In this document: positions 961 through 20,613 of the stretch, one piece after another
Numbering within the stretch: position 1 is the first letter of the stretch
Layout of the letters: the number at the start of each line of letters is the position of its first letter
Virus record (IMG/VR): IMGVR_UViG_2778261180_000005
Reading direction: 5' to 3' (one strand)
Length of the DNA stretch: 36,121 nucleotides
Source: a virus
Lineage: Duplodnaviria > Heunggongvirae > Uroviricota > Caudoviricetes
Made by a program: the position numbers and the translations under genes
The notes under the pieces: model-generated
The model's input: the letters and a program-made list of their open reading frames with translations, nothing else
Database searches by the model: none
What the model was told of the DNA's origin: nothing

Positions 961-1000
961 GCCCCTATCGTTATAATACGCGGTAGGGGCGTTTTTGTTT
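961..1000 (+). terminator. rho-independent terminator
   Basis: GCCCCTA(961-967)/TAGGGGC(984-990) stem followed by TTTTTGTTT. Confidence 0.7.
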
Positions 1001-1009
1001 GGAAATGGT

Positions 1010-2689
1010 ATGAAAACTAAACTGTATTCGTATATTCGCTTCTCGTCTATGAAGCAAGCGGATGGTAGTTCTTATGAACGCCAGAAGAGAACAGCCGCAG
1101 AGATAGCCGCAAAATATGATCTTGAGCTAGTTACAAGCTATCAGGATTTTGGTGTATCTGCATTCAAAGGGGCTAACAGTAGAACAGGTGCACTATCTCG
1201 CTTTCTGGATGAGATTGGTCGATCCGTTCCGGTTGGTAGCTGGCTGGTTGTGGAAAACTTAGACCGTATCTCTCGCCAATCCATCATTGAAGCACAAGAG
1301 CTATTTCTCTCGATTATCCGTAGGGGAATAACTATCGTAACTGGCATGGATGGTAAGGTCTATAGCAAGGAATCGGTTAATGCCAATCCTATTGATTTGC
1401 TGTTGAGTGTCATGTTGTTTGCGAGAGCTAACGAGGAAAGTCAGACTAAGCGCAATCGTACTAACTCAAGCGCATTGATTAAGATTAAAGCTCATCAAGA
1501 AAATCCACAAAATCCGGCTGTTGCAATCGAGGAAATTGGAAAGAATATGTGGTGGACTGATACCACATCTGGTTATGTGCTTCCTCATCCGGTCTTCTTC
1601 CCTATTGTTCAGGAAGTTGTGGAATTACGCAGGAATGGACGGTCAACCGCCGAGATACTGGATCACCTTAACGCGACATACACACCACCACCAGCCGCAA
1701 GTCACAAGAGGCATTCAAACTGGTCACGGGCAATGATTGAAAGGTTGTTCCATACCCGCGCTTTGATTGGTATCAAGGAAATCTCTGTAGATGGCGTTAA
1801 GTATGAGTTAAAGGATTATTATCCTCGTGTGCTAGATGACGCTGAGTTTTATCACCTTAAGAAAAGCATTGGTGTTAGAGCATGTAACTATGGAGACAAG
1901 GAAGAAGTTAAACCTATTCCCTTGCTTAGTGGTGTTGGTCTATTGAAATGTGAACATTGCGGTTCCGCTATGGTTAAGGTGAAAGGAACTAACAAACGTC
2001 CTAACCAATATCGTTATTCATGCGATGCAATGCGCTCTAGTCGTATTGCATGTGTGCATACAAACTGGAGTTTTCGAGGTGATCAATTAGAGAAAGCTGT
2101 ATTGCAATTGCTGGCTGATAAAATCTGGATTGCTGAGGATAAGGCTAATCCGGTTCCGGCTTTGAAAGTACAGATTGATGAAATATCACGCAAGATTGAT
2201 AACCTGATTACCCTTTCTGCTATGACAGGAGCAACGAAGGAGCTAGCCGATCAGATTACTACCCTCAATAGCGAGCGTGAAACACTCTACAATCAAATTA
2301 AGATGGCAGAAGAGGAAATGTATTCTGTTGACTCTCAAGGCTGGGAGAAGCTCGCAGAATTTGATTTAGAAGATGTTTACAACGAGGATCGCATTAAGGT
2401 CCGGTTTAAGATTAAGCAAGCTCTAAAACGGATCGGGTGTAGCAGGATTGACAAGTACAAAAACTTGTTTGTACTGGAATACATCGATGGCAAGACCCAG
2501 AGAGTTGTAATAGAAAATTCAAGAGGACCGAGGAAAGGCCGGATCTTCGTTGATTTGAAAACTATCAATGATAGACAGATTCTGGAAAGTAACGGGCTTG
2601 TTTTGCATCCATGTTTAGACATGCTGACAGATAAGAACTGGAAACCAGAAGAGGAAATACCAGGTCCATTACAGGAATTTGGAATTTAA
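1010..2689 (+). CDS. large serine recombinase (integrase-type), 559 aa
   Basis: N-terminal resolvase-like catalytic region (YIRFSSMKQ..SYERQ); central recombinase domain; Cys-rich zinc-ribbon (CEHCGSAMVKV...YSCDAMRSSRIACVH); C-terminal coiled coil. ATG at 1010 preferred over the TTG at 995. Confidence 0.85.
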   Translation: MKTKLYSYIRFSSMKQADGSSYERQKRTAAEIAAKYDLELVTSYQDFGVSAFKGANSRTGALSRFLDEIGRSVPVGSWLVVENLDRISRQSIIEAQELFLSIIRRGITIVTGMDGKVYSKESVNANPIDLLLSVMLFARANEESQTKRNRTNSSALIKIKAHQENPQNPAVAIEEIGKNMWWTDTTSGYVLPHPVFFPIVQEVVELRRNGRSTAEILDHLNATYTPPPAASHKRHSNWSRAMIERLFHTRALIGIKEISVDGVKYELKDYYPRVLDDAEFYHLKKSIGVRACNYGDKEEVKPIPLLSGVGLLKCEHCGSAMVKVKGTNKRPNQYRYSCDAMRSSRIACVHTNWSFRGDQLEKAVLQLLADKIWIAEDKANPVPALKVQIDEISRKIDNLITLSAMTGATKELADQITTLNSERETLYNQIKMAEEEMYSVDSQGWEKLAEFDLEDVYNEDRIKVRFKIKQALKRIGCSRIDKYKNLFVLEYIDGKTQRVVIENSRGPRKGRIFVDLKTINDRQILESNGLVLHPCLDMLTDKNWKPEEEIPGPLQEFGI

Positions 2690-4249: not shown

Positions 4250-4289
4250 TAAAGGTAATGCCTATAAGATAAATTAAGTGAGGTTTTTT

Positions 4290-4871
4290 ATGATGAATGA
4301 TGTGCGCAAAGCATGTGATATCCCGTTCAATTTTATCCGCACCAAAAATGGCAAAGCGCCATCACATCCAATTGATATGGAAGCAAGGATCGTGACCCGT
4401 ATTGAAAACGAGGGTTTACCCTTGATTTATCACGGATTCAAAGGTGAGTATAAATCAATCAATAGCCGTATTGTGCTAGAGTGTGAAAGCTGCGCAAGAA
4501 TCAGAGATATAACAGCAAAACAATTCTTACATAATCCTACTGTGTGCCCGTGTAATCGTAGCAAATATGACAACAAATATAAAAATGGGCAACCAGTATT
4601 ATATGTTATGCGGTGTGGTGATGTGGGTAAGGTTGGAGTAAGTCACAATGTGTTGACGAGAAAACATAAGCTAAGATGCCAGAATAAGATGAAATTTGAT
4701 ATCATCGAGACTTTCGAATTTCAAGACGAAAAAGACGCATACGCGGCAGAATTGTTTATCAAGAAAAACCTAGTAAAAGGTGATTTTGATATTAAAGAAG
4801 GTGCTACAGAAACGTTTGTTTATAATGAAAAAATGGTCAGAAATATAGCTAACGTCGCCAGCATATTCTAA
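4290..4871 (+). CDS. Zn-finger plus T5orf172/GIY-YIG-like domain protein, paralog of 2763..3761 (193 aa)
   Basis: ATG at 4290 with AGTGAGG SD; CESC..CPC cluster followed by LYVMRCGDVGKVGVSHNVLTRKHKL. Confidence 0.65.
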   Translation: MMNDVRKACDIPFNFIRTKNGKAPSHPIDMEARIVTRIENEGLPLIYHGFKGEYKSINSRIVLECESCARIRDITAKQFLHNPTVCPCNRSKYDNKYKNGQPVLYVMRCGDVGKVGVSHNVLTRKHKLRCQNKMKFDIIETFEFQDEKDAYAAELFIKKNLVKGDFDIKEGATETFVYNEKMVRNIANVASIF

Positions 4872-4872
4872 C

Positions 4873-4905
4873 AAAAAAGCGCCCACTAGAGGCGCTTTAA
4901 TTTTA
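4873..4905. terminator. bidirectional intrinsic terminator
   Basis: AGCGCC cactaga GGCGCT hairpin between an A6 run and TTTAATTTT; sits between convergent genes. Confidence 0.7.
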
Positions 4906-5256
4906 TCCATTCCACCGTGATTTTTTTGATCTGGAATCAATATGCGTAAAGGTTTTATATTTTCCTAAGCCGTATTGAGTAGGATATTTCCCATCAAGAT
5001 AAGCATGGACAATATCAGGGGAGACACCCTTGACCACAATGTCAGCCGCACGGCCTCGAACGTGATAGCTGTTGGTTGCCCCGCCTACATTCTTGTTATG
5101 AGCCGGGCAACGGTTGCCACTGTTAATAATCACTGGTTTACCGAAGTGTTCTCGTACATCCTCAAGAATTACCAGTAATTCAGCGTCGATTGTATCATAA
5201 TCACATTTTCCGCATTTACATTTAAATTCCTTGCGAGAAAAATGTTTGCTTAACAT
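4903..5256 (-). CDS. endolysin, peptidase M15 family (117 aa)
   Basis: Motifs SRKEFKCKCGKC, GGATNSYHVRGRAADI and FTHID typical of zinc M15 peptidoglycan peptidases; SD AAGGGGG. Confidence 0.85.
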   Translation of the reverse strand: MLSKHFSRKEFKCKCGKCDYDTIDAELLVILEDVREHFGKPVIINSGNRCPAHNKNVGGATNSYHVRGRAADIVVKGVSPDIVHAYLDGKYPTQYGLGKYKTFTHIDSRSKKSRWNG

Positions 5257-6909: not shown

Positions 6910-9900
6910 TTAAGAAACAGAAATACCCGTAGCGGCTTTCTTAGTAACAATTACAGAAAGATCGCTGATCCATGTGCTGGGAGTCCAGTTGTTGATTGCG
7001 CTTGAACTTACTTCAAAAGTTAGCGTAACTGGTCCGTGTCCGGCTGGCATATCAATAACAGCACTATACAATCCAGTCTGTCTACCATATGCACGGTTAT
7101 ATAATTCAGCACCGTTCTTGCGAACAATCAAGCGACAGTTATCATAGTAAGTATTGTTATTCGAGCCTTCACGCGCATTAAGACCACCAAAGCTAATAGC
7201 AGGAACGATAATCTGACGATCAAACGGGTGATCATCTTCAATTCGAACAGTGATTGTACCTTGCGGATAACCGGGATAGCCCAATGATGGGTTTTCGTCC
7301 CAATGTGGGAATCGACGACCAATAGCTTTCACGAAGTCACCACGCACCTGATTAGCATCAAGCATACCCAAAATGCGGCAACTTGAATTAATCGTTACGT
7401 TGTTCATTTCGCCGGAATCAGCCACCAAATGACCACGAATATTAGCGTGTCTAAAATGACAAGTGCCATCTTTGCCGATATACCATCCATCGTTACCATT
7501 CCAGTTATAAGACTGGATATAGTTACCAATTTTAGCATTATCGATAGAGCCATCAATAATATGACCTGTTCCGATCTGTGCGTGTTGGATGTGAGCGCCG
7601 TTAATCTGGGCTGTGCCGATCTTAGCCGTGGTAATAGCCGCATCACTAATCTGGGCTGTGCCAATTGCAGCATTACGAATCATCGCATTATCGAGATAAA
7701 CTTTGTTATCTTCGATGCCAAACGGACAAACTTCTGATCCGTCTTGTGGAGCTACCGCGATTTTATCAGCCGTAAAGATGATTCTCGTCGGTTCTGCCGG
7801 ATCATTGGTTGCGCTCATATGAATACCAGCCACGCGACCATCTGCATTAACTGCCAGATTATATTTGCTGTTAATGGTTCCCTTCAAAGCATCGATTTTT
7901 ACATCTGCTTCCTGATTCACACCAGCAATCTTGCCATCCATTTCTACCCGAACTTGATCAATCTTACTTGCGCTTGCTGCCTCACTGGTAGCAATTGCTT
8001 GTTTCAGGGTAGTAGCAGATGCGCTAACTTCATTGGTGATATCGCCTTTCAGTTCAGCTTTAACCTGATCAATCTTAGTGGAGCTAGCTTGCTCGCTGGT
8101 AGCAATCAGACTCTTTAAGGTATTGGCTGAGGCTTGGACCGTCTGCCCTGTTTCGGTAGTGATTTGCTTATGCATTGCATCAATTTTAGCATCGGCATTA
8201 GCGCCAGCTTGAGCAATAGCATCCGCGATAGTTTCATCTAAGCGGTCTTGTAAACCAATCAGGTCTTCCAGTGCTTCTTTGTCCTGATCGTCCCAACTAA
8301 TGGTAGATTTCATTTGCATGAAATACGGTTCAGACCAAACAGCATCATCCATACCGAAAATATCATAGTGAGCACCACGGATATAATAATCACCGTCAGC
8401 CAAATCAAAGGAAGTATGACTAACGCTATTGGTAGTCACTGCCCTTGCATCGGAGAAAGTATTATCGGTTGCATACTGAATGATTGACCCTGCATAGTCA
8501 TGTTCTACGTCATCCGCCCAGCTAACAAACGCAGTATTAAAGCCACCACGCGCACTAAAACCTTTCATTGGCTTATGCTGTGGGTTAATAGCCACTAAAC
8601 GCGCTGGGGCGCTCTCTGAGTTGTTATAGCCCTTAGCCGATACTTCTACCGTAAGTTGACGCGAAAGGCCGTTAAACTGGTTCATATCAAGCGTATAAGT
8701 CCATGATTCAGGATCGCGGGTACGGTACTGAATAGACTTACCAGCCTTGTTAGTTACCTTGATAATGTAGGCTTCAAACAGGTCACTAAACTTGTTAGTT
8801 TCACCGTTGATAACCACATCTAAGGCTTGCTGATTTTCCCATTCGATAATCAGATCATTGCCTTCGAAAGTACCAGGTGAGCTACCCTGATTTTTGATGC
8901 GGATCACTGGCGTAGGCAGTTCATAGGTAACTTCTGGATTCTGGTTAACCAGTTCCACCCATTCGGAACGAGCAATAATACCGAAAGCACAAACGCGGTA
9001 ATCGTAGGAACGATCTTTAGCCAGTGCATTGATATTGAAAATTTGCTGTGAAGTCTGTCCCAGCTTAATCCAGTTAGGTGATCCACTCACACGATAATCA
9101 ATCTGGAAACCGTAGCGGTTAAAATCTTCCGGTGCGTCCCATGTCAAAGTTACGTTTTTACCGTGGATTGTCTCACCAGTTGCCTTAATTCTGAAATTAG
9201 TCGGTTTCTGTACTGTCATTGAATCCGGTAAACCAGTCGGTCTATTGTCTGGAGTCGCCGCATAGTTCAGGTCAGTATAAACCTGAGAATTATATTCTGT
9301 GGCGGTGATAGTCATCATCCCAGCAATACCAGAATCAATCGAGCGATCAATTGCAGTAATACGCCATAAGGAATTATTCAGCTTCAATTCATCATAGGTT
9401 ACGCTGATAACATCCCAAACTTCGGCAGTGAATGCGTCAGTAGTCATAAAGCTGATAACCTGAGTGATACGAGATTTATTTCGCTCAATGCTCGCGAGTT
9501 TATCAATCTGGGTTTTAGACTTAACAAAACGATATTCAATATCTTTAGCGATAATTCGACCATCTTGACGAATAGTAGCATCGTTTTCAGCATCAGCCGG
9601 ATAACGGAGCATTTGCTCGGAATAGTCAATTGATGGTTCTTGATACATCGCGTTAATGGTATTGAAATAACCGTTAGTGCCACCTGTTTTCAGTGATACT
9701 TTTCCCATCATGATATTGTCTTCATTGAAGGTATGCTTAACAATATCAGGAGCATCCAGTTTCAGAGTAATACGTCCAAAGGATTCGAACATTACCCCGC
9801 CGAAAGTCTGCATAAGGCTAGTCAAGTTCTCTTTAAAGCTGGCGTTCGGATCACATGCACCGTTTGAATGCAAATCCATCTGGCGTACTTGCTTACGTAC

Positions 9901-10686
9901 TTTCAGGAATGAATCAACGTTAATGTTTTCAATCGGTACGGATAATCCATATTTTTCATTTGTTAGGTAGTGGAAAATCTGGTCCACGCCGTTAGTGCTA
10001 GCCTCAATAGCATTGGTTTCGAGGTTACGAATTTTAAGGCCGCAAACGTCTACCGCTACCTGGCTATTAGGCTGGAGAATATCAACACCAGCAGCCAAAG
10101 ATTTGTCATCACGACGTAAAACAATACACATAGTCGCAATGCCGTTACCCTGATACCGGTCATCCCAATCAGCGCCCAAATGATGTTTAGCAAGATCTAA
10201 TGCAGTGTTAGGATTTTTACCAGTGCGAAACTCGACTTCTAACACTTTGCGATATTCGTCTTTAATGTTTCCTTTATCGAGAATACCATCACGAATTGTC
10301 ATATTCTGACTAATGAGAACGTTTTTATTATCGATGTGCAGTGCTTTAAAGTGATCGATCTCACCTTCGGCAATAGCAAAAATTTGTACCAGTTTGTTAT
10401 TTTCACGCTGTGAAATTGCTTTGTAAACGCAGATTGCACCAGTTCGGGTAGTACCGAAAAGAACGGGTAATACTGTCTTAGGATCGTTTGATGTTCCTAG
10501 TGTCACCGCATTATCTGGGCTTTGTACTTTCGGTGTTTTTGGTGCGCCTACAGTGGAAGCAATCAAGGTCATTGCACCAGCAGCCATACCGATAGCGACT
10601 GCGGTCATAACAGAAAATGTTGCAGCAGCAGCCATCCCAGCAGACGCACCAGCAATAACCGCGCCTACCAATACTTCAAATCCCAT
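6910..10686 (-). CDS. central tail fibre / host-specificity protein, lambda J-like (1258 aa)
   Basis: Position after K/L/M-like genes; fibronectin-III-like middle; C-terminus (DDHPFDRQIIVPAISFGG...VIDMPAGHG...) resembles the lambda J receptor-binding end; N-terminal Gly/Ala-rich hydrophobic segment resembles the gpI C-terminal region. Confidence 0.85.
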   Translation of the reverse strand: MGFEVLVGAVIAGASAGMAAAATFSVMTAVAIGMAAGAMTLIASTVGAPKTPKVQSPDNAVTLGTSNDPKTVLPVLFGTTRTGAICVYKAISQRENNKLVQIFAIAEGEIDHFKALHIDNKNVLISQNMTIRDGILDKGNIKDEYRKVLEVEFRTGKNPNTALDLAKHHLGADWDDRYQGNGIATMCIVLRRDDKSLAAGVDILQPNSQVAVDVCGLKIRNLETNAIEASTNGVDQIFHYLTNEKYGLSVPIENINVDSFLKVRKQVRQMDLHSNGACDPNASFKENLTSLMQTFGGVMFESFGRITLKLDAPDIVKHTFNEDNIMMGKVSLKTGGTNGYFNTINAMYQEPSIDYSEQMLRYPADAENDATIRQDGRIIAKDIEYRFVKSKTQIDKLASIERNKSRITQVISFMTTDAFTAEVWDVISVTYDELKLNNSLWRITAIDRSIDSGIAGMMTITATEYNSQVYTDLNYAATPDNRPTGLPDSMTVQKPTNFRIKATGETIHGKNVTLTWDAPEDFNRYGFQIDYRVSGSPNWIKLGQTSQQIFNINALAKDRSYDYRVCAFGIIARSEWVELVNQNPEVTYELPTPVIRIKNQGSSPGTFEGNDLIIEWENQQALDVVINGETNKFSDLFEAYIIKVTNKAGKSIQYRTRDPESWTYTLDMNQFNGLSRQLTVEVSAKGYNNSESAPARLVAINPQHKPMKGFSARGGFNTAFVSWADDVEHDYAGSIIQYATDNTFSDARAVTTNSVSHTSFDLADGDYYIRGAHYDIFGMDDAVWSEPYFMQMKSTISWDDQDKEALEDLIGLQDRLDETIADAIAQAGANADAKIDAMHKQITTETGQTVQASANTLKSLIATSEQASSTKIDQVKAELKGDITNEVSASATTLKQAIATSEAASASKIDQVRVEMDGKIAGVNQEADVKIDALKGTINSKYNLAVNADGRVAGIHMSATNDPAEPTRIIFTADKIAVAPQDGSEVCPFGIEDNKVYLDNAMIRNAAIGTAQISDAAITTAKIGTAQINGAHIQHAQIGTGHIIDGSIDNAKIGNYIQSYNWNGNDGWYIGKDGTCHFRHANIRGHLVADSGEMNNVTINSSCRILGMLDANQVRGDFVKAIGRRFPHWDENPSLGYPGYPQGTITVRIEDDHPFDRQIIVPAISFGGLNAREGSNNNTYYDNCRLIVRKNGAELYNRAYGRQTGLYSAVIDMPAGHGPVTLTFEVSSSAINNWTPSTWISDLSVIVTKKAATGISVS

Positions 10687-11105
10687 TATTCACCCCCGAA
10701 TCTATAAACTTGTTCATAGTCAATGTCTGAAACAGGAATGGTCATCCAGATACCATCTTCTTCAACGAGGCCATAACCGGAATAATGAGGAACTACGGAA
10801 TAATATTTGCGGTTTCCTAATTTGTGGGCTGTGACCAGTAAGTCGCCGTCCTGTAAGTCATCAGTGACTAATTTGAAATGTTTCTTAATTGGTTGAAGGA
10901 TATTTGAATACCCGCTTAATTCTTTGCAGATTTTCAAGCCTTCTTCTTTAGTTGAATATTTTTTATAAAGAGAATTATATAGGTCAGTACCAGCGAGAAT
11001 ATCGATGATCTTACATGCAATGAGATTGCAATCATTCTCGCCTTGAACGAACTCCTGACCTATTAAAGAATTGATATAATCGGTGATAAGCCTAGTTTTT
11101 AGCAT
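10686..11105 (-). CDS. tail assembly protein, NlpC/P60-like (gpK-like), 139 aa
   Basis: Start at 11105 with GGAGGT SD; conserved Cys (GENDCNL) and His (VVPHYSGYG); stop overlaps the J-like start (TAATG). Confidence 0.55.
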   Translation of the reverse strand: MLKTRLITDYINSLIGQEFVQGENDCNLIACKIIDILAGTDLYNSLYKKYSTKEEGLKICKELSGYSNILQPIKKHFKLVTDDLQDGDLLVTAHKLGNRKYYSVVPHYSGYGLVEEDGIWMTIPVSDIDYEQVYRFGGE

Positions 11106-11151
11106 GTTGAATACCTCCATGCTGTTATTTACTAGGCTTAGGGAGAAGGGA

Positions 11152-11805
11152 TTATTTCTTCGATGAATGCCACTTACTTTCGCTATTCCAGCGACCCGTC
11201 CTTGAGAAGAATAGATCGTTCTCGTTTCCAACATAGGATCGGTGGATACCATCGGAGGCATGACTTCGAGCGTTTTTATCTAGAACTTCCCAGATACTAT
11301 TAAGCTGAAATTCTGATTCGTTTTTACACTCATCATCTTCATGTTCGATGTTAATACCGATGGAATCGACTACCCCACGGAAAACAGGGTAAGTGGTTTC
11401 AACCTTGCCCGTGTTGGGGTTAAGGAAAACCATCTCGATTTTCACATCAGATTTATCGAATTGCTTGTTTCGAATCAGGGTAATGTATTCTTCGCGAACG
11501 TTAGAAACAGTTACGTTGATCCCGTTGTTGTTGATCTCCTTCTCTTCGGTATTCGATGAGATTTGAAGAAAATCACCCGTTGCGAGATACGTAAAACCGT
11601 TATAGTCCAAATCGAAATACCCATCTGTAAGCCGTAGAACGTCCCCTGACGCTGTTATCACTTCGATAATGTGAAACATCGATCCAGTGGAGAAAAGCTG
11701 CGGTAGTGTCAATCTAGACACGTTCTGACCTGTCTGGTCGTTGTATACCTCGATGAAGTCCAGATTAGTGCATAGTTTGCTGAATGATTCCTGAATAGTT
11801 GCCAT
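11152..11805 (-). CDS. minor tail protein (gpL position), 217 aa
   Basis: Start ATG at 11805 overlapping the upstream stop; synteny within the tail tip module. Confidence 0.55.
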   Translation of the reverse strand: MATIQESFSKLCTNLDFIEVYNDQTGQNVSRLTLPQLFSTGSMFHIIEVITASGDVLRLTDGYFDLDYNGFTYLATGDFLQISSNTEEKEINNNGINVTVSNVREEYITLIRNKQFDKSDVKIEMVFLNPNTGKVETTYPVFRGVVDSIGINIEHEDDECKNESEFQLNSIWEVLDKNARSHASDGIHRSYVGNENDLFFSRTGRWNSESKWHSSKK

Positions 11806-12365
11806 TATACATTCTCCACTAATTCGAATTTCATCTTGCCAATCTGGGCGATCTTCCAATCGATATTTTCAGTTTTGAGAACAAATTCACCTTCTACGTT
11901 CTGATACTTGATCACCTCACCCGCCAGGACGTTCTGACGCAAGTTAGGGAAGAGTTTCATTTCGCCACCTGATTTCACATCTTCGGTGATCGTGTAGATT
12001 TTCTTGTGGTTCTCAAACTGTACAATCGTTCCCGCTTTCAGTGTTCCGGTGAAGTTGGAGAGTCTTACCTTACGCCCACCGCGAGCAGTACCAGCAGCAG
12101 CCGTAACCATCTGGCGTACATCACCTGTATATTTTGAAAAGTAAGACAGTGGCACACTAAAAGGACGACCAAAAAGGTGACGTGCTACAAATTCTTTTAC
12201 TTCGTTAATATCCTGAGCCATGAAATTCGCGGTAAATTCTGCTTCGTAAAAATGGATGCCAGTAAAGCGACGTTGGAACTTACCAGAAATAGATTGCGCC
12301 TTGAAGAAAGGCTGTTTTGATTTAAGAGTAAAATCTGTGATTTTAATATTCTTGGATTTGAACAT
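11805..12365 (-). CDS. minor tail protein (gpM position), 186 aa
   Basis: Second ATG (12365) chosen: GGGGGC SD, and the first ATG is buried in the terminator stem. Confidence 0.55.
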   Translation of the reverse strand: MFKSKNIKITDFTLKSKQPFFKAQSISGKFQRRFTGIHFYEAEFTANFMAQDINEVKEFVARHLFGRPFSVPLSYFSKYTGDVRQMVTAAAGTARGGRKVRLSNFTGTLKAGTIVQFENHKKIYTITEDVKSGGEMKLFPNLRQNVLAGEVIKYQNVEGEFVLKTENIDWKIAQIGKMKFELVENV

Positions 12366-12367
12366 AG

Positions 12368-12414
12368 AAAAAGCCCCCATAGTTTTATGATTATTTATGA
12401 CTATGGGGGCTTTT
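12368..12414 (-). terminator. strong hairpin/terminator after the tape-measure gene, overlapping the next start region
   Basis: 14-bp perfect inverted repeat AAAAGCCCCCATAG...CTATGGGGGCTTTT with a 19-nt loop and a following U-run. Confidence 0.6.
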
Positions 12415-12416
12415 AA

Positions 12417-14846
12417 TTACATCTTACGGCGCTGTGCGTCTTCTACCGCCTGAGCAACTAACTTAGCGTGACGTTTGATAGCATCCATGACCATCTTGTC
12501 TGAGCTATTAACGTTGCCGTTAATGTTCAAAGGCGCATTAACTTCAATCGGCTGAGAGTTACCACCGCCTGATTTTTGAGCAGCAAGGAAGTCTTTCAAA
12601 TCACCGTTAGTACGCTGATCAACTACTCGTTCACCCTTATCAAGCAACCATGTACCCTCACGAGGGATGTTATCAATACCATCATGAGCCATACCGCTAA
12701 CGTTAGTAGACTTGATGTTTGCGATGCTCCCCATGTTCTGAGAAACAGCCAATGCAGCAGCCGCGATTTTTTGACCTGTGGTTACGTTGGTTGGATCGTT
12801 CCATGCATCGGTAGCAGCCGTCCACATGTTCACCGTCGCTTGTCCAATGGAGAATGCTTTATGAGCAGTGAAAGCCATCTGCATAGCTTTAGTGTTTTCC
12901 TGCCCGAAGAGAGTCATTGCAGCAGCAAAACCGCCATACATATCATCGGCTATTGACTGTCGAGCATCAGCATATTTCTTCTCAATTGCAGCCATTCGTT
13001 TTTGATGGTTTTCATTGAGTTTTTCTAATGCTTCCATCCGTTTAGCCGGATCGGTGATCCCATCAATCTTGAGTTTATCGGTTTTATAATCTTGTTCAGC
13101 GTCCGATTTCTCTTTATCGATTGCATTAAATTTAGCAAACGGGTTATTCGAGTCCTGATAATCTAAACCATTGGTCAACTGATTGGTTTTAAAACCATCC
13201 ATTCCCTGTAAAGAATTTTCAATCTGAGAATAGTTTTGCTCGGTATCGTTCACACGACGCATATATTCTTCGTAGGAGATAGCTTTACCATCAAGTAACC
13301 GTTTATGGCTTTCTAGCTCGTTGTCCCTTATTTGTTGCAATTGTGTTAAGGCATTCAAAGCATCAACCGGATCAGCACCTAAAACCATTTTGTATACGTT
13401 TTCAGTATTCTGATCGATTAAGGATTGGCGTTTCGCGGCTGCGTCTTGCTGAGAGATTAAGCCCAGATCTAAAGCAGTGTCCAAATCTTTCAAGCTGGCT
13501 TCTAACTGCTTGTTCTGAGAAGCAATAGACGCGGCGACCTGCCCTTGCAATTTAACATCAAGTGCATTCAGACGCTTGATTGCATCCTCACGTTCTTTCT
13601 GTGCTTTTTCTGCGGCTTCCTTAGCCTTTTTAGCTGCCTCTTCCGCTTTCTTGCGTGCTTCTTCTTCGGCTTTCTTCTCATTGCCAGACTTACCCAATGA
13701 TTCTGGTCTTACTGGTTTATTTGGTATAGTCAAATCACGGTTAGGATCTGCCTTGCGAGTTAGATGTTCCCCGTTATCGACAACAATCAGAGAGCCATTT
13801 TTCTTATAAGAATCACCAAAACGTTTCTTAAATCCTTCAACATCAAAGCCAGCAGTACGAGGATCGACACCAGCACCACGGATCGCGGCCTTTTCCCAAT
13901 CTGCCAGATTATTCCAACGCTTTTCTTTATTGTACTTGTCAATAATCTTTTGAGCGTCTTTATGGTTGGTGTTAAGAATACCACCAGTTGCGGTCTTGCC
14001 TTCTTTATTCAGTCGATCTAATGCCCTGAATAGAGAACTCTTTTCCCAATCAATATTAAACCAGTCAAATAGCCAGTTTAAGCTATCAACCAAAGGACCA
14101 GTAATGGTCATGCCGACACCTTTCAGGTTATTTTCCAGCTTATTAATATTCTGAGAAAATTTATCATATTTTTTAGCGTTTTCTTCGGTGACGTTAACAG
14201 ATTGATTCTGAATAGCGATCATCGCCTCTTGAGCACTATTATATTTCTCAAGCTGGCTGGTCATATGGCTTGAATCACTGGCTAAAGATTCCATCATGAA
14301 CTTGATTTCAGCCATTGATTTTCCGGCTTTCTTCATGTCATAGAACACTTGGATCGCCGCTTTCATACCACCTTGCGGATCTGTCATGAAGTGAGCATAG
14401 TTTTCTAACTTAAGGCCAACCGATTCTAAGTCATCAGCAATACCACCACCGTTAGCCCACGCATCACCCATCTTATCTAAGGTGTCTTTGTTGATATCGC
14501 CAAATTTTTCAACTGTTAAGCCAGTGCCAGAAAATTCCTTTTCCAGTCTTTGAAGGGATTCAATCGAGAGTCCGGTCGCCTTAGATACTTCTGAATACTG
14601 TTTAACGTATTCCGCGCCAGCTTTAGCGGCTGCAACCACTGCGGTCGCAACTAAGCCGATACCACCAGCAGCCAAACCAGCAGAGCCAGCGATCCCACGA
14701 AGAGACCCAGTCAGACCAGATAAGCCACCACCAAAATCAATATTACTTGCCTTTTCAGACAAACTATCGAGAAGGTCGGCGGCTTCATTGGTACTTCTCC
14801 TTAGACCTTTATTATCCCCTTCTATTGTTACTATATGTCTTGTCAT
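12417..14846 (-). CDS. tail tape measure protein (809 aa)
   Basis: Large coiled-coil-rich ORF downstream of the G/T chaperones; Lys/Glu/Ala repeats (KKAEEEARKKAEEAAKKAKEAAEKAQ); AAGGGG SD. Confidence 0.9.
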   Translation of the reverse strand: MTRHIVTIEGDNKGLRRSTNEAADLLDSLSEKASNIDFGGGLSGLTGSLRGIAGSAGLAAGGIGLVATAVVAAAKAGAEYVKQYSEVSKATGLSIESLQRLEKEFSGTGLTVEKFGDINKDTLDKMGDAWANGGGIADDLESVGLKLENYAHFMTDPQGGMKAAIQVFYDMKKAGKSMAEIKFMMESLASDSSHMTSQLEKYNSAQEAMIAIQNQSVNVTEENAKKYDKFSQNINKLENNLKGVGMTITGPLVDSLNWLFDWFNIDWEKSSLFRALDRLNKEGKTATGGILNTNHKDAQKIIDKYNKEKRWNNLADWEKAAIRGAGVDPRTAGFDVEGFKKRFGDSYKKNGSLIVVDNGEHLTRKADPNRDLTIPNKPVRPESLGKSGNEKKAEEEARKKAEEAAKKAKEAAEKAQKEREDAIKRLNALDVKLQGQVAASIASQNKQLEASLKDLDTALDLGLISQQDAAAKRQSLIDQNTENVYKMVLGADPVDALNALTQLQQIRDNELESHKRLLDGKAISYEEYMRRVNDTEQNYSQIENSLQGMDGFKTNQLTNGLDYQDSNNPFAKFNAIDKEKSDAEQDYKTDKLKIDGITDPAKRMEALEKLNENHQKRMAAIEKKYADARQSIADDMYGGFAAAMTLFGQENTKAMQMAFTAHKAFSIGQATVNMWTAATDAWNDPTNVTTGQKIAAAALAVSQNMGSIANIKSTNVSGMAHDGIDNIPREGTWLLDKGERVVDQRTNGDLKDFLAAQKSGGGNSQPIEVNAPLNINGNVNSSDKMVMDAIKRHAKLVAQAVEDAQRRKM

Positions 14847-17091: not shown

Positions 17092-20000
17092 TTACCCTAA
17101 TTTAGCTTCAATTGCAGCAAGACGTTCACGAAGAAGTTTATTTTCTTCGCTCATTTCTTGGACCGCTTTAATTAAAAGCGCGTTCACTGCGGAGTTTGAA
17201 ATTGTTAAAATTTCTTCTGGGTTATCAAGAGATCCGACATTAGAAGTGCTAACAGCTTCCGGTAAAATTTCTTGTAAATCCTGTGCGATAATACCAATCT
17301 CATGTGCGATGACTTCTCTGTCAGAAAGAGACTTAACTTTATCGTAGGTTTTAACTTTTAGTTTATTTACCTTATCTACCGCATTTTCTTCGTAGTCTTC
17401 AACGTTAATTTTCAGACGACGGTCGGAACGAATATAAACATCGTTACAGTAAACCGACGCACTAGATGTGAAATCACCATTTGCAGCCCATGAATACCAG
17501 CCGCCTTTGTTCATATGCATCATTACGGTAGCTTGACCACCGCCAGCATGAACACCCATTGCCGCAAGATGATCAACACCCCAATGAGTTGCTTTCCAAA
17601 TTGAATATGCTTGGGTATGTGAATCCTGACAATCTAAGAGAATACCAGCAGGACGGTTGCGCCAGTCATCCCATGCACCACCAGAAACCTCACCACGGAT
17701 AAGAGCGTATTCACCATTATATGGAACACGTTCTCCCGCTTTAATCATTGCACCCTGGAAGTGATGACTAAATGAACCCCCATGATTATTTCGTATATGT
17801 AAAATACCATCATCTGTAGCCCAGATAACAGCCTTTTCCGATTCGCTGTCATCTCTAAACCAGATATGGCGTGCACCAGTTGAGTTTTTGATGGTTATTC
17901 CGGTAGGTCCATGCACGGTCAAAGCACCAGCTACATCAAATAAAACGGTGTTATCTGTTCTACGTTCAGTATAGAAGTGATAACCTTTGGAATCGCCGAT
18001 TTCCATTACTGCCGCGCGTCCAACTTCTGAATTTCCCCAATTGTTGATAGAGAATCGTTCAGAGCTATTATTCATCTGATTTAGGTATAATGTACCGTCA
18101 GTGAATGTTTCGCCAAAGAATCTAGTTTTAATGCTATTGGTTCCGGTGCGTTCAAATTCGGCTAAAAATCCTTTTGAGTCACGAAGACTTAAAACGTTAT
18201 TTCGACCTGTATTGCTTGCCCCCCAATGGACGAGTTCCATATAGTCCATAGATTGACGAGAACCAGATTTAAATAAAAGGTTGTCTTCGAGACGAGTGCT
18301 ACCATCAATTCCCAGGTGCAAACAACGAGCGGTTTCAGTACCACCTAAATATAGTCCACCATCATCAAAATTATAGCTGAATGGTCTGCGATTATTCCAA
18401 CTACCAAAAGAATCTTTTAAATTGGTAGTAAGAATATGGAAGCTAGAACCGTCATTGCGTAACATCAAACCATAGTTACCGCCTTTAACAGCCAAACGAG
18501 CATTTTCAGATAATGCAACTTCGCTATTCATTACAATTTTCTGGCCTTTACCACCAGTAATATGTAATTCACCGTCTTCGATCAAATTTATCGAGTTTTG
18601 ACCGTTATCGTTCCACCAAATAAAATCTTTGGTCGTCAAATCACCAAAACCAAACCAGCCATTACGAACATCTTGACCAGTGCGATAATCCATAAAATTA
18701 AAATGGCTTGCTTCGTTTGGTCCTCGACGAATATCAATACCAGCATTAGAACCGGAACCTAAGCCACCATCGATGGTCAATCTACGAATATGCAAACCGG
18801 TTACAGCCGAAAGCAATAATTGTTGGGTTACATCGGTATATCCAGTAGCAAGACGATAATTTTGGTCATCAACACTTTCGTGCCAGATAGTGGCAGGAGC
18901 AGAACTACGGAAGCGACGCAACATCTTTTTAGCATTTGTCGGTTGTTCGTTCATATGCTCAATGTCGTATTGGCCTTGATGGTTTCCAGCAAAATTTAAC
19001 GTTCCACGGTTGCTAAAGTTATTGAACGATGAAATGTTAAGAGCATCAAAAATTTCATCTGCAACAGGTTTTTCACCACCCAGATATTCAGGAGTATCCA
19101 ACAGGTTTAAAGAAACACCACCGGAAGAAACTTGATATTCTGCTAAAACAAATCCTGTATGTGCACCGTAGTAAGCGTAAAGATCGTAATTATCACCATC
19201 GGTTGGAATAGCGCAAAAATGTTGTTCATAATGCCAAATAGTATAATACGCATTGAATACAACACCTTTCGGGCTATTGTTGCCGCATCGAATCACCAAT
19301 TCGATAATATTGGCTTGTCCATTCATCCCGACGTTATAACCGTTACCACCAACCAAACGGATCTTAGCGGTGCGACCGTGTTGCTGTGGCATTGTCAAAG
19401 TGCCTAGTTTAAACCAACCACCCTCGATCCCAAAATTAAGCGTCTTCTGGAACAGTCGGTCAATTTCTGCTTTCGAATATGCGCCAATTTCAGCCGGAGT
19501 AGGTTTATCGCCTTCATGATACATGCGGTGAGAATATGACAAGTTACCCAATTCATCGTAGCCGTATGTTCTTACCGTATGAACCGGATTAGACCCATAA
19601 GTGAACTCAAAGCCACGAGCATGATTAACACCAGATGGATGCGGAACATGCAAGATCATTGCAATATGACCCGCCAGGTCATTCATGCGGAATGCACCAA
19701 AGTAGTCAAGATTACGCGCACTCGGATCATCAAAATAGTTTGCGGTCTTAGACAACAAATAACCATCAGTATAAGTGTTTACGTGTTTTTTGATGTACTT
19801 GCCATCACTCGATCCGTCGGCTGCATCAATACGGCTTTCTAAGCGTGCCAGTTCAGAATCAGTGTAAGACTTGTTATTGTCAACTTTGCTATGAATTGCT
19901 GAATTTTTGGCTTCAACATCACGGGTTAATGCTGCGACGTTATCCGCTGCCTCTTGCTTATTAGCCGCAATCACACCAGTAAGGTTATTGTAGGTGTCAG

Positions 20001-20613
20001 TTAACTGATTTTCCGCATAGACTTTATTTGCTGCGATAGTGCGGTCAGTTTCTGTCTTAATCAGATCAACTTTGTCATTGATTGCTTTGTCATTACTTGC
20101 GATTGTCGCGTCGGTACGGGATTTAATATCATCAACTTTTTTATTGATGCGGGTGTCCAGTTCCTGAGTTGCTACAGCAGCCGCATTTTTATTAGCGTTG
20201 ATGGTATCCGACAATTCAGCTTTAACACCAGCAAGATCGGAAGCAGCTTTATTTTTATTAGCTTCGATTGTCGCGTCGGTTTCGCGTTTAATTACATCAA
20301 CTTTATTGTTAATTTCTGCATGATTTGCTGCGATAGTAGAATCAGTAGTTTGTTTAATTTCATCTACTTTAGCGTGAATATTGCGGTCATTTACTGCAAT
20401 TGTGCTATCCAATTCTTGTTTGTTAGCATCAACTTTAGATTCTAGTGCCGCGTGAGTTTCAGGAGAAACAGAGATTTGAACTACTTCATGATCTCGGTCT
20501 TTGGTAAAAATAACATGGTCTTTAAGGTTGATTGCCACCTCACCGACCTGTAATTGTTCCGGCGTTGGCTTTTTGCCAGAAACATTAGTTCGTTTAAATT
20601 GGATTGATTGCAT
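17092..20613 (-). CDS. side tail fibre with C-terminal intramolecular chaperone (peptidase S74-like) domain, 1173 aa
   Basis: N-terminus KPTPEQLQVGEVAINLKD; about six ~22-aa repeats (KVDxIKxxTDxTIxAN); C-terminus SDRRLKINVEDYE...GIIAQDLQEILPEAV typical of autocleaving fibre chaperone domains; GAGGTGA SD. Confidence 0.85.
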   Translation of the reverse strand: MQSIQFKRTNVSGKKPTPEQLQVGEVAINLKDHVIFTKDRDHEVVQISVSPETHAALESKVDANKQELDSTIAVNDRNIHAKVDEIKQTTDSTIAANHAEINNKVDVIKRETDATIEANKNKAASDLAGVKAELSDTINANKNAAAVATQELDTRINKKVDDIKSRTDATIASNDKAINDKVDLIKTETDRTIAANKVYAENQLTDTYNNLTGVIAANKQEAADNVAALTRDVEAKNSAIHSKVDNNKSYTDSELARLESRIDAADGSSDGKYIKKHVNTYTDGYLLSKTANYFDDPSARNLDYFGAFRMNDLAGHIAMILHVPHPSGVNHARGFEFTYGSNPVHTVRTYGYDELGNLSYSHRMYHEGDKPTPAEIGAYSKAEIDRLFQKTLNFGIEGGWFKLGTLTMPQQHGRTAKIRLVGGNGYNVGMNGQANIIELVIRCGNNSPKGVVFNAYYTIWHYEQHFCAIPTDGDNYDLYAYYGAHTGFVLAEYQVSSGGVSLNLLDTPEYLGGEKPVADEIFDALNISSFNNFSNRGTLNFAGNHQGQYDIEHMNEQPTNAKKMLRRFRSSAPATIWHESVDDQNYRLATGYTDVTQQLLLSAVTGLHIRRLTIDGGLGSGSNAGIDIRRGPNEASHFNFMDYRTGQDVRNGWFGFGDLTTKDFIWWNDNGQNSINLIEDGELHITGGKGQKIVMNSEVALSENARLAVKGGNYGLMLRNDGSSFHILTTNLKDSFGSWNNRRPFSYNFDDGGLYLGGTETARCLHLGIDGSTRLEDNLLFKSGSRQSMDYMELVHWGASNTGRNNVLSLRDSKGFLAEFERTGTNSIKTRFFGETFTDGTLYLNQMNNSSERFSINNWGNSEVGRAAVMEIGDSKGYHFYTERRTDNTVLFDVAGALTVHGPTGITIKNSTGARHIWFRDDSESEKAVIWATDDGILHIRNNHGGSFSHHFQGAMIKAGERVPYNGEYALIRGEVSGGAWDDWRNRPAGILLDCQDSHTQAYSIWKATHWGVDHLAAMGVHAGGGQATVMMHMNKGGWYSWAANGDFTSSASVYCNDVYIRSDRRLKINVEDYEENAVDKVNKLKVKTYDKVKSLSDREVIAHEIGIIAQDLQEILPEAVSTSNVGSLDNPEEILTISNSAVNALLIKAVQEMSEENKLLRERLAAIEAKLG
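20010..20470 (-). repeat. in-frame tandem coding repeats within the side-fibre gene
   Basis: Recurrent DNA blocks (such as CGATTGTCGCGTCGGT...ATCAACTTT) encoding the KVDxIK..TDxTIxAN repeats; coordinates approximate. Confidence 0.6.

Follow-up and report, generated by a model that had tools for sequence, protein, structure and literature searches.

A predicted tail-tip protein of an Escherichia coli prophage joins a gpI-like plug module, a T5-type hub and a lambda J-type receptor-binding end in one chain

We analyzed the IMG/VR virus record IMGVR_UViG_2778261180_000005 (Caudoviricetes). This 36,121-nucleotide stretch of DNA, called the window here, is a complete temperate phage of ~36 kb residing in Escherichia coli chromosomes. 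A gene on its minus strand encodes a protein of 1258 amino acids (aa). As judged from sequence, the product is probably a trimer at the centre of the tail tip of a temperate siphophage of E. coli. Alignments and the layout of the chain indicate that residues 1-98 are homologous to the C-terminal half of the lambda tail protein gpI. By profile comparison, the hub behind this plug module appears much closer to T5 pb3 than to lambda J. We read the protein as a homologue of known tail tips, apparently with the usual architecture of a T5/gene transfer agent (GTA)-type hub lineage that acquired a lambdoid distal fibre. The coding sequence (CDS) contains, in order, the plug module, a baseplate hub, a string of fibronectin-III-like (FN3) domains, a fibre and a receptor-binding domain. 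Its parts are as follows.

6910..10686, minus strand: whole CDS from the list of open reading frames (ORFs), predicted central tail-tip protein of 1258 aa, stop codon at 6910-6912
10549..10686, minus strand: residues 1-46, Gly/Ala-rich hydrophobic segment (hydropathy, AlphaFold2 helices, family conservation)
10477..10548, minus strand: residues 47-70, polar linker GAPKTPKVQSPDNAVTLGTSNDPK (aligned with gpI 156-183 by BLASTP and HMMER)
10393..10476, minus strand: residues 71-98, conserved strand segment TVLPVLFGTTRTGAICVYKAIS, aligned with gpI 184-215 (NVLPVLYGEMRVGSRVVSQEIS) and T5 pb3 262-290
10312..10392, minus strand: residues 99-125, LVQIFAIAEGEIDHFKALHIDNKNVLI, in T5 pb3 (291-313) contiguous with the strand segment
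9247..10311, minus strand: residues 126-480 (approximate), baseplate hub domains of the HDII/insertion/HDIII/HDIV type (profile, Pfam, hhalign, Foldseek)
8197..9246, minus strand: residues 481-830, FN3-like string (Pfam fn3 and PHROG)
7486..8196, minus strand: residues 831-1067, alpha-helical segment followed by a straight central fibre (Phage_Tail_Tip)
6913..7485, minus strand: residues 1068-1258, lambda J-type distal fibre and receptor-binding domain (Pfam and PDB matches)

The ORF was exactly as the original prediction had described it, on the minus strand and 1258 aa long. That prediction had also placed a gpI-like segment in frame with a J-like body, and the segment indeed forms one CDS with the hub and fibre body. 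The start codon of the gene, ATG, lies behind a GGGGGTG ribosome-binding site and has one base in common with the stop codon that ends the upstream gene (TAATG). In E. coli prophages, PGAP calls the same 1258-aa CDS and names it 'phage tail tip domain-containing protein'. In a megablast search with the gene, 55 of 5426 complete E. coli genomes gave a match, 51 of them full-length, and all matches were chromosomal. Near-identical prophage contigs of 35-36 kb are held in IMG/VR, and the same reading frame was present in the independent IMG/VR prophage contigs L005-L012 and L015. No tandem repeats were found in the gene at the DNA level.

From a lambda-centred view the ORF looks unusual. It could be an annotation or assembly artefact, a small I-like gene having been joined to a hub gene by a frameshift or a sequencing error. 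Nothing beyond this look speaks for such an artefact, and we consider it exceedingly improbable. The identical frame was full-length and annotated as one CDS in the 51 complete genomes, and it recurred in the IMG/VR contigs listed above and in 64 distinct distant relatives. In T5 pb3, the strand and the EGEID segment also belong to one continuous chain.

The first ~90 residues had been said to resemble the C-terminal part of gpI. This proved right for residues 48-98; for residues 1-46, the likeness was limited to composition and position. In a BLASTP alignment, residues 48-107 and lambda gpI 156-223 were 35% identical (pairwise E=6e-7). A semi-global alignment of residues 48-100 with gpI 156-223 gave a z score of 9.7, and none of 2000 shuffles (0/2000) reached the observed score. 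Across the family, G78 was invariant and G83 was invariant or nearly so. These alignments indicate that residues 47-70 are the counterpart of the gpI 'plug' (159-175), as defined in PMC11101478, plus the loop after it.

The PDB sequence set (177,635 sequences) was then searched. With the single sequence, phmmer returned gpI chains alone, at a marginal E of ~0.03. A profile of 16 N-terminal family sequences returned gpI 117-220 as the top match (E=9.2e-8) and T5 pb3 261-311 as the second (E=2.2e-7). The family N-terminus profile was matched to gpI by hhalign with a probability of 96% (E=3e-9). A broader profile, A4, was built from metagenomic relatives and contained 32 sequences. Its top eight matches were T5-like pb3 (two sequences, the better one with E=1.6e-9), lambda gpI (three sequences, the best with E=1.1e-5), the C-terminal halves of the F2 pyocin (E=4.6e-4) and T1 (E=2.7e-3) homologues of gpI, and the RcGTA megatron's N-terminal part (residues 20-143, E=0.035). 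Profiles A1 and A2 did not list the megatron.

For the hydrophobic segment, residues 1-47 were compared with gpI 97-156. The z score was 0.3, no better than that of shuffled sequences. The segment resembles gpI in composition, length and position only. Its mean Kyte-Doolittle hydropathy in 19-residue windows was 1.4-1.7 over centre positions 12-40, and that of gpI 104-148 was 1.0-1.6. AlphaFold2 placed helices at residues 4-12 and 24-45 with low confidence. Family members shared 45-60% identity over residues 1-46. The segment probably forms two helices, the counterpart by position of gpI H1/H2 (101-155) and of the iris/penetration helices of the RcGTA megatron.

Neither the whole protein nor the stretch of its first 120 aa was matched by the Pfam family Lambda_tail_I (PF06805), with matches accepted up to E<=10. 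On lambda gpI itself, PF06805 matched residues 14-97 (E=1e-28), which are the ubiquitin-like (Ubl) domain only. Because the model covers the Ubl domain alone, its silence is uninformative about residues 1-98. The Ubl part of gpI (residues 1-100) was also compared with the six-frame translation of the window, and nothing was found. A second copy of the plug module was not found in the six-frame translation either. The 1258-aa protein therefore does not correspond to the whole of gpI, since the Ubl domain was absent from the protein and from the six frames. An N-terminal ubiquitin-like beta-grasp domain ending in a conserved Gly was missing, and so was a stand-alone I gene of ~200-225 aa between K and J beside a JAB+NlpC/P60 gene. 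All parts of the TAPI-C region (Gly-rich hydrophobic stretch, plug and LPVLYG strand) were present, of which only the strand and the plug were significant.

A likeness to gpI could also come from chance or from the composition of a hydrophobic N-terminal signal or anchor, without homology. The shuffle result for residues 1-46, the marginal phmmer match and the lack of a Pfam Lambda_tail_I domain fit this explanation. It is highly improbable nonetheless. The score of residues 48-100 was far outside the shuffled range, and the profiles ranked gpI best or near-best in the PDB (E=9e-8 and 1e-5), together with its T1 and F2 pyocin homologues. The Pfam model is silent on this region. In addition, the module and a separate I gene occurred in a complementary manner, as described below.

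The profiles also located the lambda I/J split. The pb3 alignment was one stretch over profile positions 69-119. On lambda, the profile was divided: positions 9-91 matched gpI 131-222, and positions 90-122 matched gpJ 20-56 (E=0.11). Residues 99-125 aligned with the gpJ N-terminus (22-54) in the expected register, without significance (hhalign probability 3%, E=0.016). Their counterpart is probably this gpJ N-terminus, just beyond the split. The lambda I/J cut would map to about residues 92-98 of the 1258-aa protein; on the gpJ side the evidence is suggestive and not proof.

Profile A2, built from residues 1-480, was used to search the PDB for relatives of the hub. It matched T5 pb3 with E=3.4e-36 in two colinear stretches, 71-121 to pb3 262-312 and 169-496 to pb3 401-742. 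Lambda gpJ was matched at 267-485 with E=1e-8, and hhalign to gpJ gave 96.7%. Pfam Phage-tail_3 was found at residues 285-447 below its threshold (19.3 vs 23 bits). Pfam FNIII-A_GpJ, Ig_J and Ig_J_second, all strong in lambda J, were not detected in the protein. An AlphaFold2 model of residues 1-520 was built from an 11-sequence alignment; its mean pLDDT was 48.5 and its pTM was 0.30, and it was used only qualitatively. A Foldseek search with this low-confidence model listed the hub proteins of T5, DT57C, JBD30, lambda, Chi and T1 first, at a TM of ~0.3. This ranking was consistent with a hub identity and nothing more.

The protein thus had a pb3-type hub core preceded by the PVVYG strand. It did not have the pb3-type HDI (gpL-like) in the same chain or an end after two FN3 domains, and the lambda-type N-terminal and middle domains were also missing, with the hub core still homologous to that of lambda by profile. 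The body had been called J-like. This needs correction: the hub core is homologous to that of gpJ by profile, but the body is far closer to T5 pb3 (E=3e-36 vs 1e-8) and resembles the RcGTA megatron by layout.

We examined the distribution of the module among relatives. Word-indexed protein searches returned 8 and 10 close relatives and were probably swamped by Ala/Gly-rich words. An exhaustive phmmer search with residues 1-115 against 1.84 billion cluster representatives gave 14 clusters at E<=1e-3. In 13 of them the match was at the N-terminus, the exception being a repeat protein. Members of these clusters were mostly longer than 600 aa, and a few were short and apparently truncated. A scan of IMG/VR gave 79 loci with 71 distinct N-termini. 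The module was at the N-terminus of a large protein in 64 of the 71, down to ~20% identity. In four others it was located behind an extra N-terminal domain of ~150-190 aa. The remaining three lacked the module and had a lambda J-type N-terminus (FNIII-A_GpJ) instead.

In each of these three module-less lineages (four loci), the gene directly upstream was gpI-like and encoded the module in the C-terminal half of its product (L069:3-374, L076:66-740, L078:1264-1941 and L079:1536-2213). The complete ORFs (L076, L078 and L079) were ~225 aa long and ended at the start of J; that of L069 was cut by the contig end. The N-terminal part of these gpI-like genes ended in a Gly run (..VPAI(I/V)GGGGK). The two arrangements excluded one another: the module either closed the I gene or opened the hub gene. 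The original prediction had taken a separate gene upstream of J as the norm. Among these relatives, a separate gene was found only next to lambda J-type proteins, and in T5 pb3 the module is internal. In the hub lineage, the N-terminal module appears to be the usual state and the lambda split the variant.

A fused I-J arrangement or a very short I remnant had been proposed. The gene could descend from a lambdoid ancestor in which lambda-type I and J had recently fused, or it could keep a short I remnant left after loss of the N-terminal domain. The C-terminal 190 aa are clearly lambdoid, and TAPI-TAPJ fusions have been recorded in prophages by Iyer et al. 2006 (PMC1779556). Still, both origins are very unlikely. 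The hub is far closer to T5 pb3 than to lambda J, and FNIII-A_GpJ, Ig_J and Ig_J_second were not detected. The neighbouring genes are of the GTA/phiJL001 type (Gp84_N, DUF6950) and not Phage_tail_L or JAB-NlpC. The N-terminal position of the module is common to relatives down to ~20% identity. An exchange of the distal fibre as a module accounts best for the lambdoid part, as the C-termini of other members differ. These results favored the usual architecture of a hub lineage over a remnant or a recent fusion.

The 'TAPI-C' region goes back to Iyer et al. 2006, who also described fusions of TAPI to TAPJ in some prophages and predicted that gpK, through its JAB domain, removes the ubiquitin-like domain (PMC1779556). 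Lambda gpI is resolved only from residue 101, right after Gly99-Gly100, which is consistent with removal of the Ubl domain. In the 1258-aa protein, Met1-Gly2 falls at the position of the gpI di-glycine. In five metagenomic relatives (L038:3425-4200, L039, L052, L067 and L077), a Hint/intein-like domain of ~150-160 aa precedes the I-like module. It begins at a Cys (..CC followed by CFDADTEI..), ends with the canonical ...YANN(Y/F)(L/V)VHN, and is followed by KGGGG, an amphipathic segment and the PVIYG strand. Pfam Hint, Vint and Intein_splicing matched it with E of ~2e-5, all below gathering thresholds. By its sequence features, it looks like a self-cleaving pro-domain, parallel to the junction of Ubl-GG and hydrophobic segment in lambda gpI.

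It is a tentative suggestion that the plug module has three interchangeable N-terminal states: a cleavable Ubl domain, a self-cleaving Hint/intein-like domain that ends in VHN before KGGGG, or no pro-domain. The first state, with the predicted removal by JAB, may apply to lambda and T1. If this is true, a free N-terminus directly ahead of the hydrophobic helices would be a functional requirement of the plug. The Ubl and Hint domains would then be removable assembly pro-domains, dispensed with in the hub lineage of this prophage.

The C-terminus had been predicted to be of the lambda J receptor-binding type, and this was borne out. Pfam Ig_GpJ_C (PF12421) matched residues 1123-1258 with E=1.8e-35 and 122 bits (cut-off 26.2). 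It was preceded by Phage_Tail_Tip (PF09327) at residues 932-1029, with E=2.5e-18 and 66.6 bits (cut-off 22) and E=1e-21 when the segment was scanned alone. BLASTP aligned residues 1073-1258 with lambda J 952-1131 at 41% identity over 186 aa (E=3e-34), and the alignment took in the DDHPFDRQI and MPAG(H/R)G motifs that the prediction had quoted. The pairwise comparisons it had called for, with gpI and with gpJ, were hence both significant. In the PDB, lambda gpJ matched the receptor-binding region with E=8e-34, and the T1 tail fibre (9l9p_S 938-1110) matched the fibre segment with E=4e-17. Of the solved relatives, 'A8 gpJ 713' (9wca) matched best (E=3.5e-50, 48% identity over 194 aa). In A8, the C-terminus of a natural J has been placed on lambda, and use of OmpC was demonstrated (PMC11338833). 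Among deposited phages, the closest proteins were the J proteins of lambdoid and Stx phages (53%).

In the FN3 string, Pfam fn3 was found at residues 506-575 when the segment was scanned alone (E=4e-5, 24.1 bits vs the 25-bit cut-off). The PHROG tail-fibre families 5616 (residues 273-586) and 496 (residues 698-1257) overlapped parts of residues 481-830.

DNA of the receptor-binding segment was found in 28 E. coli genomes only, always within the same protein family. Other family members carry unrelated C-termini (P0009, P0010 and P0012-14). The different C-termini and the restricted occurrence of this DNA therefore point to an exchangeable distal module. The porin receptor that had been suggested seems plausible from the sequence relationship, with OmpC as the first guess; A8, the characterised domain most similar to it, binds OmpC, and the less similar one of lambda binds LamB. 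In one genome, NZ_CP063332.1 (E. coli BS74R-D), the receptor-binding end was matched at 36432-40208 and at 445340-445915, which suggests two related prophages in one chromosome.

The tail module lies on the minus strand in the order tape measure, distal tail protein, hub protein, DUF6950 gene and 1258-aa gene. The genes ahead of the 1258-aa gene are as follows.

12417-14846, minus strand: tape measure
11805-12380, minus strand: distal tail protein (PHROG 1302)
11152..11805, minus strand: separate hub protein, 217 aa from M19 (Pfam Phage_phiJL001_Gp84_N; PHROG 2048, tail protein)
10686..11105, minus strand: DUF6950 protein, 139 aa, in the lambda K/RcGTA g14 position (Pfam DUF6950, E=3e-12)

Phage_phiJL001_Gp84_N ('baseplate hub protein, N-terminal attachment domain') matched the separate hub protein with E=1e-5 and 26.2 bits vs a 26-bit cut-off. 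The start of this 217-aa protein follows PGAP, as in L002. It stands at the position of lambda gpL, of RcGTA g13 and of the N-terminal part of T5 pb3. The DUF6950 protein is probably papain/NlpC-like, and the DUF6950 model weakly touched the start of the NlpC/P60 region of lambda gpK (E=0.067). In the Pfam scan of this K-position gene, DUF6950 was the only match and no JAB domain was found. The annotated 199-aa lambda gpK, which holds only the JAB tail, was compared with the six frames of the window, and nothing was found. The mechanical ORF of the DUF6950 gene (10686-11261, minus strand, 191 aa) overlaps the hub gene; its likely start, also the one chosen by PGAP, is M53 (139 aa). The window lacks a NUMOD3 homing-endonuclease-like gene (L002:10762-11535) that separates the hub gene from the DUF6950 gene in the related E. 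coli BS74R-D prophage.

The protein was compared with five known systems. With lambda gpI it shares the hydrophobic Gly/Ala-rich helical stretch, the APK..TP+(V/I)Q..DN plug and the (V)LPVL(F/Y)G..R.G strand, at 35% identity over 68 aa. In lambda the module ends a 223-aa protein, whereas here it starts the hub/fibre protein. The Ubl domain and its partner JAB peptidase were not detected here, and the polar linker is ~8 residues shorter. With lambda gpJ it shares the distal fibre and receptor-binding domain, a homologous hub core and an FN3 string between hub and fibre. They differ in the N-terminal third, and the I-like module is in the same chain in the 1258-aa protein.

T5 pb3 is the best solved relative of residues ~71-480. 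In both proteins the PVVYG strand and AEGEID are contiguous, and the plug directly precedes the strand. However, the HDI/gpL-like N-terminal part lies within pb3 and is a separate gene here. The pb3 plug is hydrophilic, refolds to a beta-hairpin and has no Gly/Ala hydrophobic helices. T5 pb3 ends after two FN3 domains, and the fibre (pb4) and receptor-binding protein (pb5) are separate. The lambda structure paper proposed that gpL, gpI and N-terminal gpJ together equal T5 pb3 (PMC10721106).

In RcGTA, the genes are arranged as g13, g14 and g15, with N-terminal iris/penetration helices (PMC7296036; bioRxiv 10.1101/2022.09.20.507954). A Gp84_N-type hub (g13), a small peptidase-like g14 and a megatron (g15) starting with channel-closing hydrophobic helices resemble the genes described here, and a megatron-type architecture was found in the window by gene order, Pfam and hydropathy. 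The T5 study found that the RcGTA hub and megatron superimpose on pb3 (bioRxiv 10.1101/2022.09.20.507954). Unlike the 1258-aa protein, the megatron has adhesin-like, peripheral and fibre-binding domains and no FN3 string or lambda-type receptor-binding domain, and RcGTA uses separate tail fibres. The closest solved receptor-binding region is that of the A8 gpJ chimera (9wca/9wcb; Brodel et al. 2024), for which OmpC was shown experimentally; the identity is <50%, so receptor specificity is not confidently transferable.

A mechanism may be proposed from the solved tips. From residue 101, lambda gpI consists of a pair of hydrophobic helices, a plug (159-175) closing the lumen below the C-terminus of the tape measure, and strands threaded between the gpJ hub domains (PMC11101478, PMC12617516). 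This segment comprises the plug, the helices H1/H2 and a beta-augmentation with gpJ (PMC11101478, PMC10721106, PMC12617516). Once LamB is bound, the plug drops, and entry of the helices into the outer membrane has been proposed (PMC11101478, PMC12617516). In RcGTA, the channel is closed by an iris made of the megatron's N-terminal helices, for which a pore-lining role has been proposed (PMC7296036).

By analogy, residues 1-98 likely serve as a lumen plug that inserts into the outer membrane. In the virion, three N-terminal modules would be located inside the tip lumen. Their strands would thread between the hub domains, the plugs would seal the channel, and the modules would support the tape-measure C-terminus. 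The C-terminal domain would bind an outer-membrane protein, most likely a porin (OmpC as first guess). The signal would be relayed up the fibre, and the hub would open. The plug would then drop, and the hydrophobic helices would insert into the outer membrane. From these analogies we infer where in the virion the module lies, that it inserts into the membrane, and which receptor is bound.

Several points weigh against this picture. The hydrophobic segment has no sequence-order similarity to gpI and is taken as equivalent by its position and composition. By sequence, the RcGTA megatron is linked only marginally (E=0.035). The AlphaFold2 model is poor, with pLDDT <50 for residues 1-85. T5 pb3 has the strand segment and a hydrophilic plug, so helix insertion is not universal; the membrane-helix part is therefore lineage-specific. 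The receptor-binding domain is just 41-53% identical to any characterised or deposited J protein, and in the J-type family a few substitutions can change receptor specificity. The architecture of this phage's tip is read from sequence.

Other features of the prophage were also observed. A large serine recombinase with Resolvase, Recombinase and Zn_ribbon_recom domains is encoded at 995-2689 (plus strand) and is likely the integrase of the element. In one E. coli genome, the element, with a serine recombinase gene, lies beside ycdY/csg. Upstream of the tail-tube genes, at 17092-20613 (minus strand), a second large fibre protein (1173 aa) is encoded. Its domains are a trimerisation domain of the T4 gp34 type (PF21446, E=7e-17) and, at the C-terminus, an intramolecular chaperone (Peptidase_S74, E=2e-14). 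This protein probably forms a side tail fibre, so two receptors may be used by the phage. A 197-aa ORF at 4278-4871 (plus strand, opposite to the tail genes) has a CapR homology domain (PF21817, E=1e-5) and adjoins a Peptidase_M15 endolysin-like gene at 4903-5256 (PF08291, E=2e-28). It is possibly a mobile nuclease or regulator.

In a megablast search with the gene, none of 50,697 phage records was matched. Among the proteins of deposited phages, the nearest was that of Escherichia phage DCP80 (L004, PQ671644.1, 5917-9675), which is 1253 aa long, 42% identical and has the same N-terminal module. The DCP80 record is 141 kb and is classified as Straboviridae/Gaprivervirus. This is a group of myoviruses, where a tip of the siphophage type is unexpected, and the record may be a chimera or wrongly classified.

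These results leave the current understanding of how such tails work unchanged. They indicate that a Pfam Lambda_tail_I search is blind to the functional half of gpI, and genomes of this kind therefore wrongly look I-less. The receptor-binding end is a diverged lambda J-type binder, closest to an OmpC-specific one, and may serve host-range engineering. The 1258-aa protein provides a sequence-level bridge between three solved tips: lambda (L, K, I and J as separate genes), T5 (pb3 as one chain) and RcGTA (hub, peptidase and megatron). In lambda, T5 and RcGTA, the parts follow the same linear order and are cut at different places.

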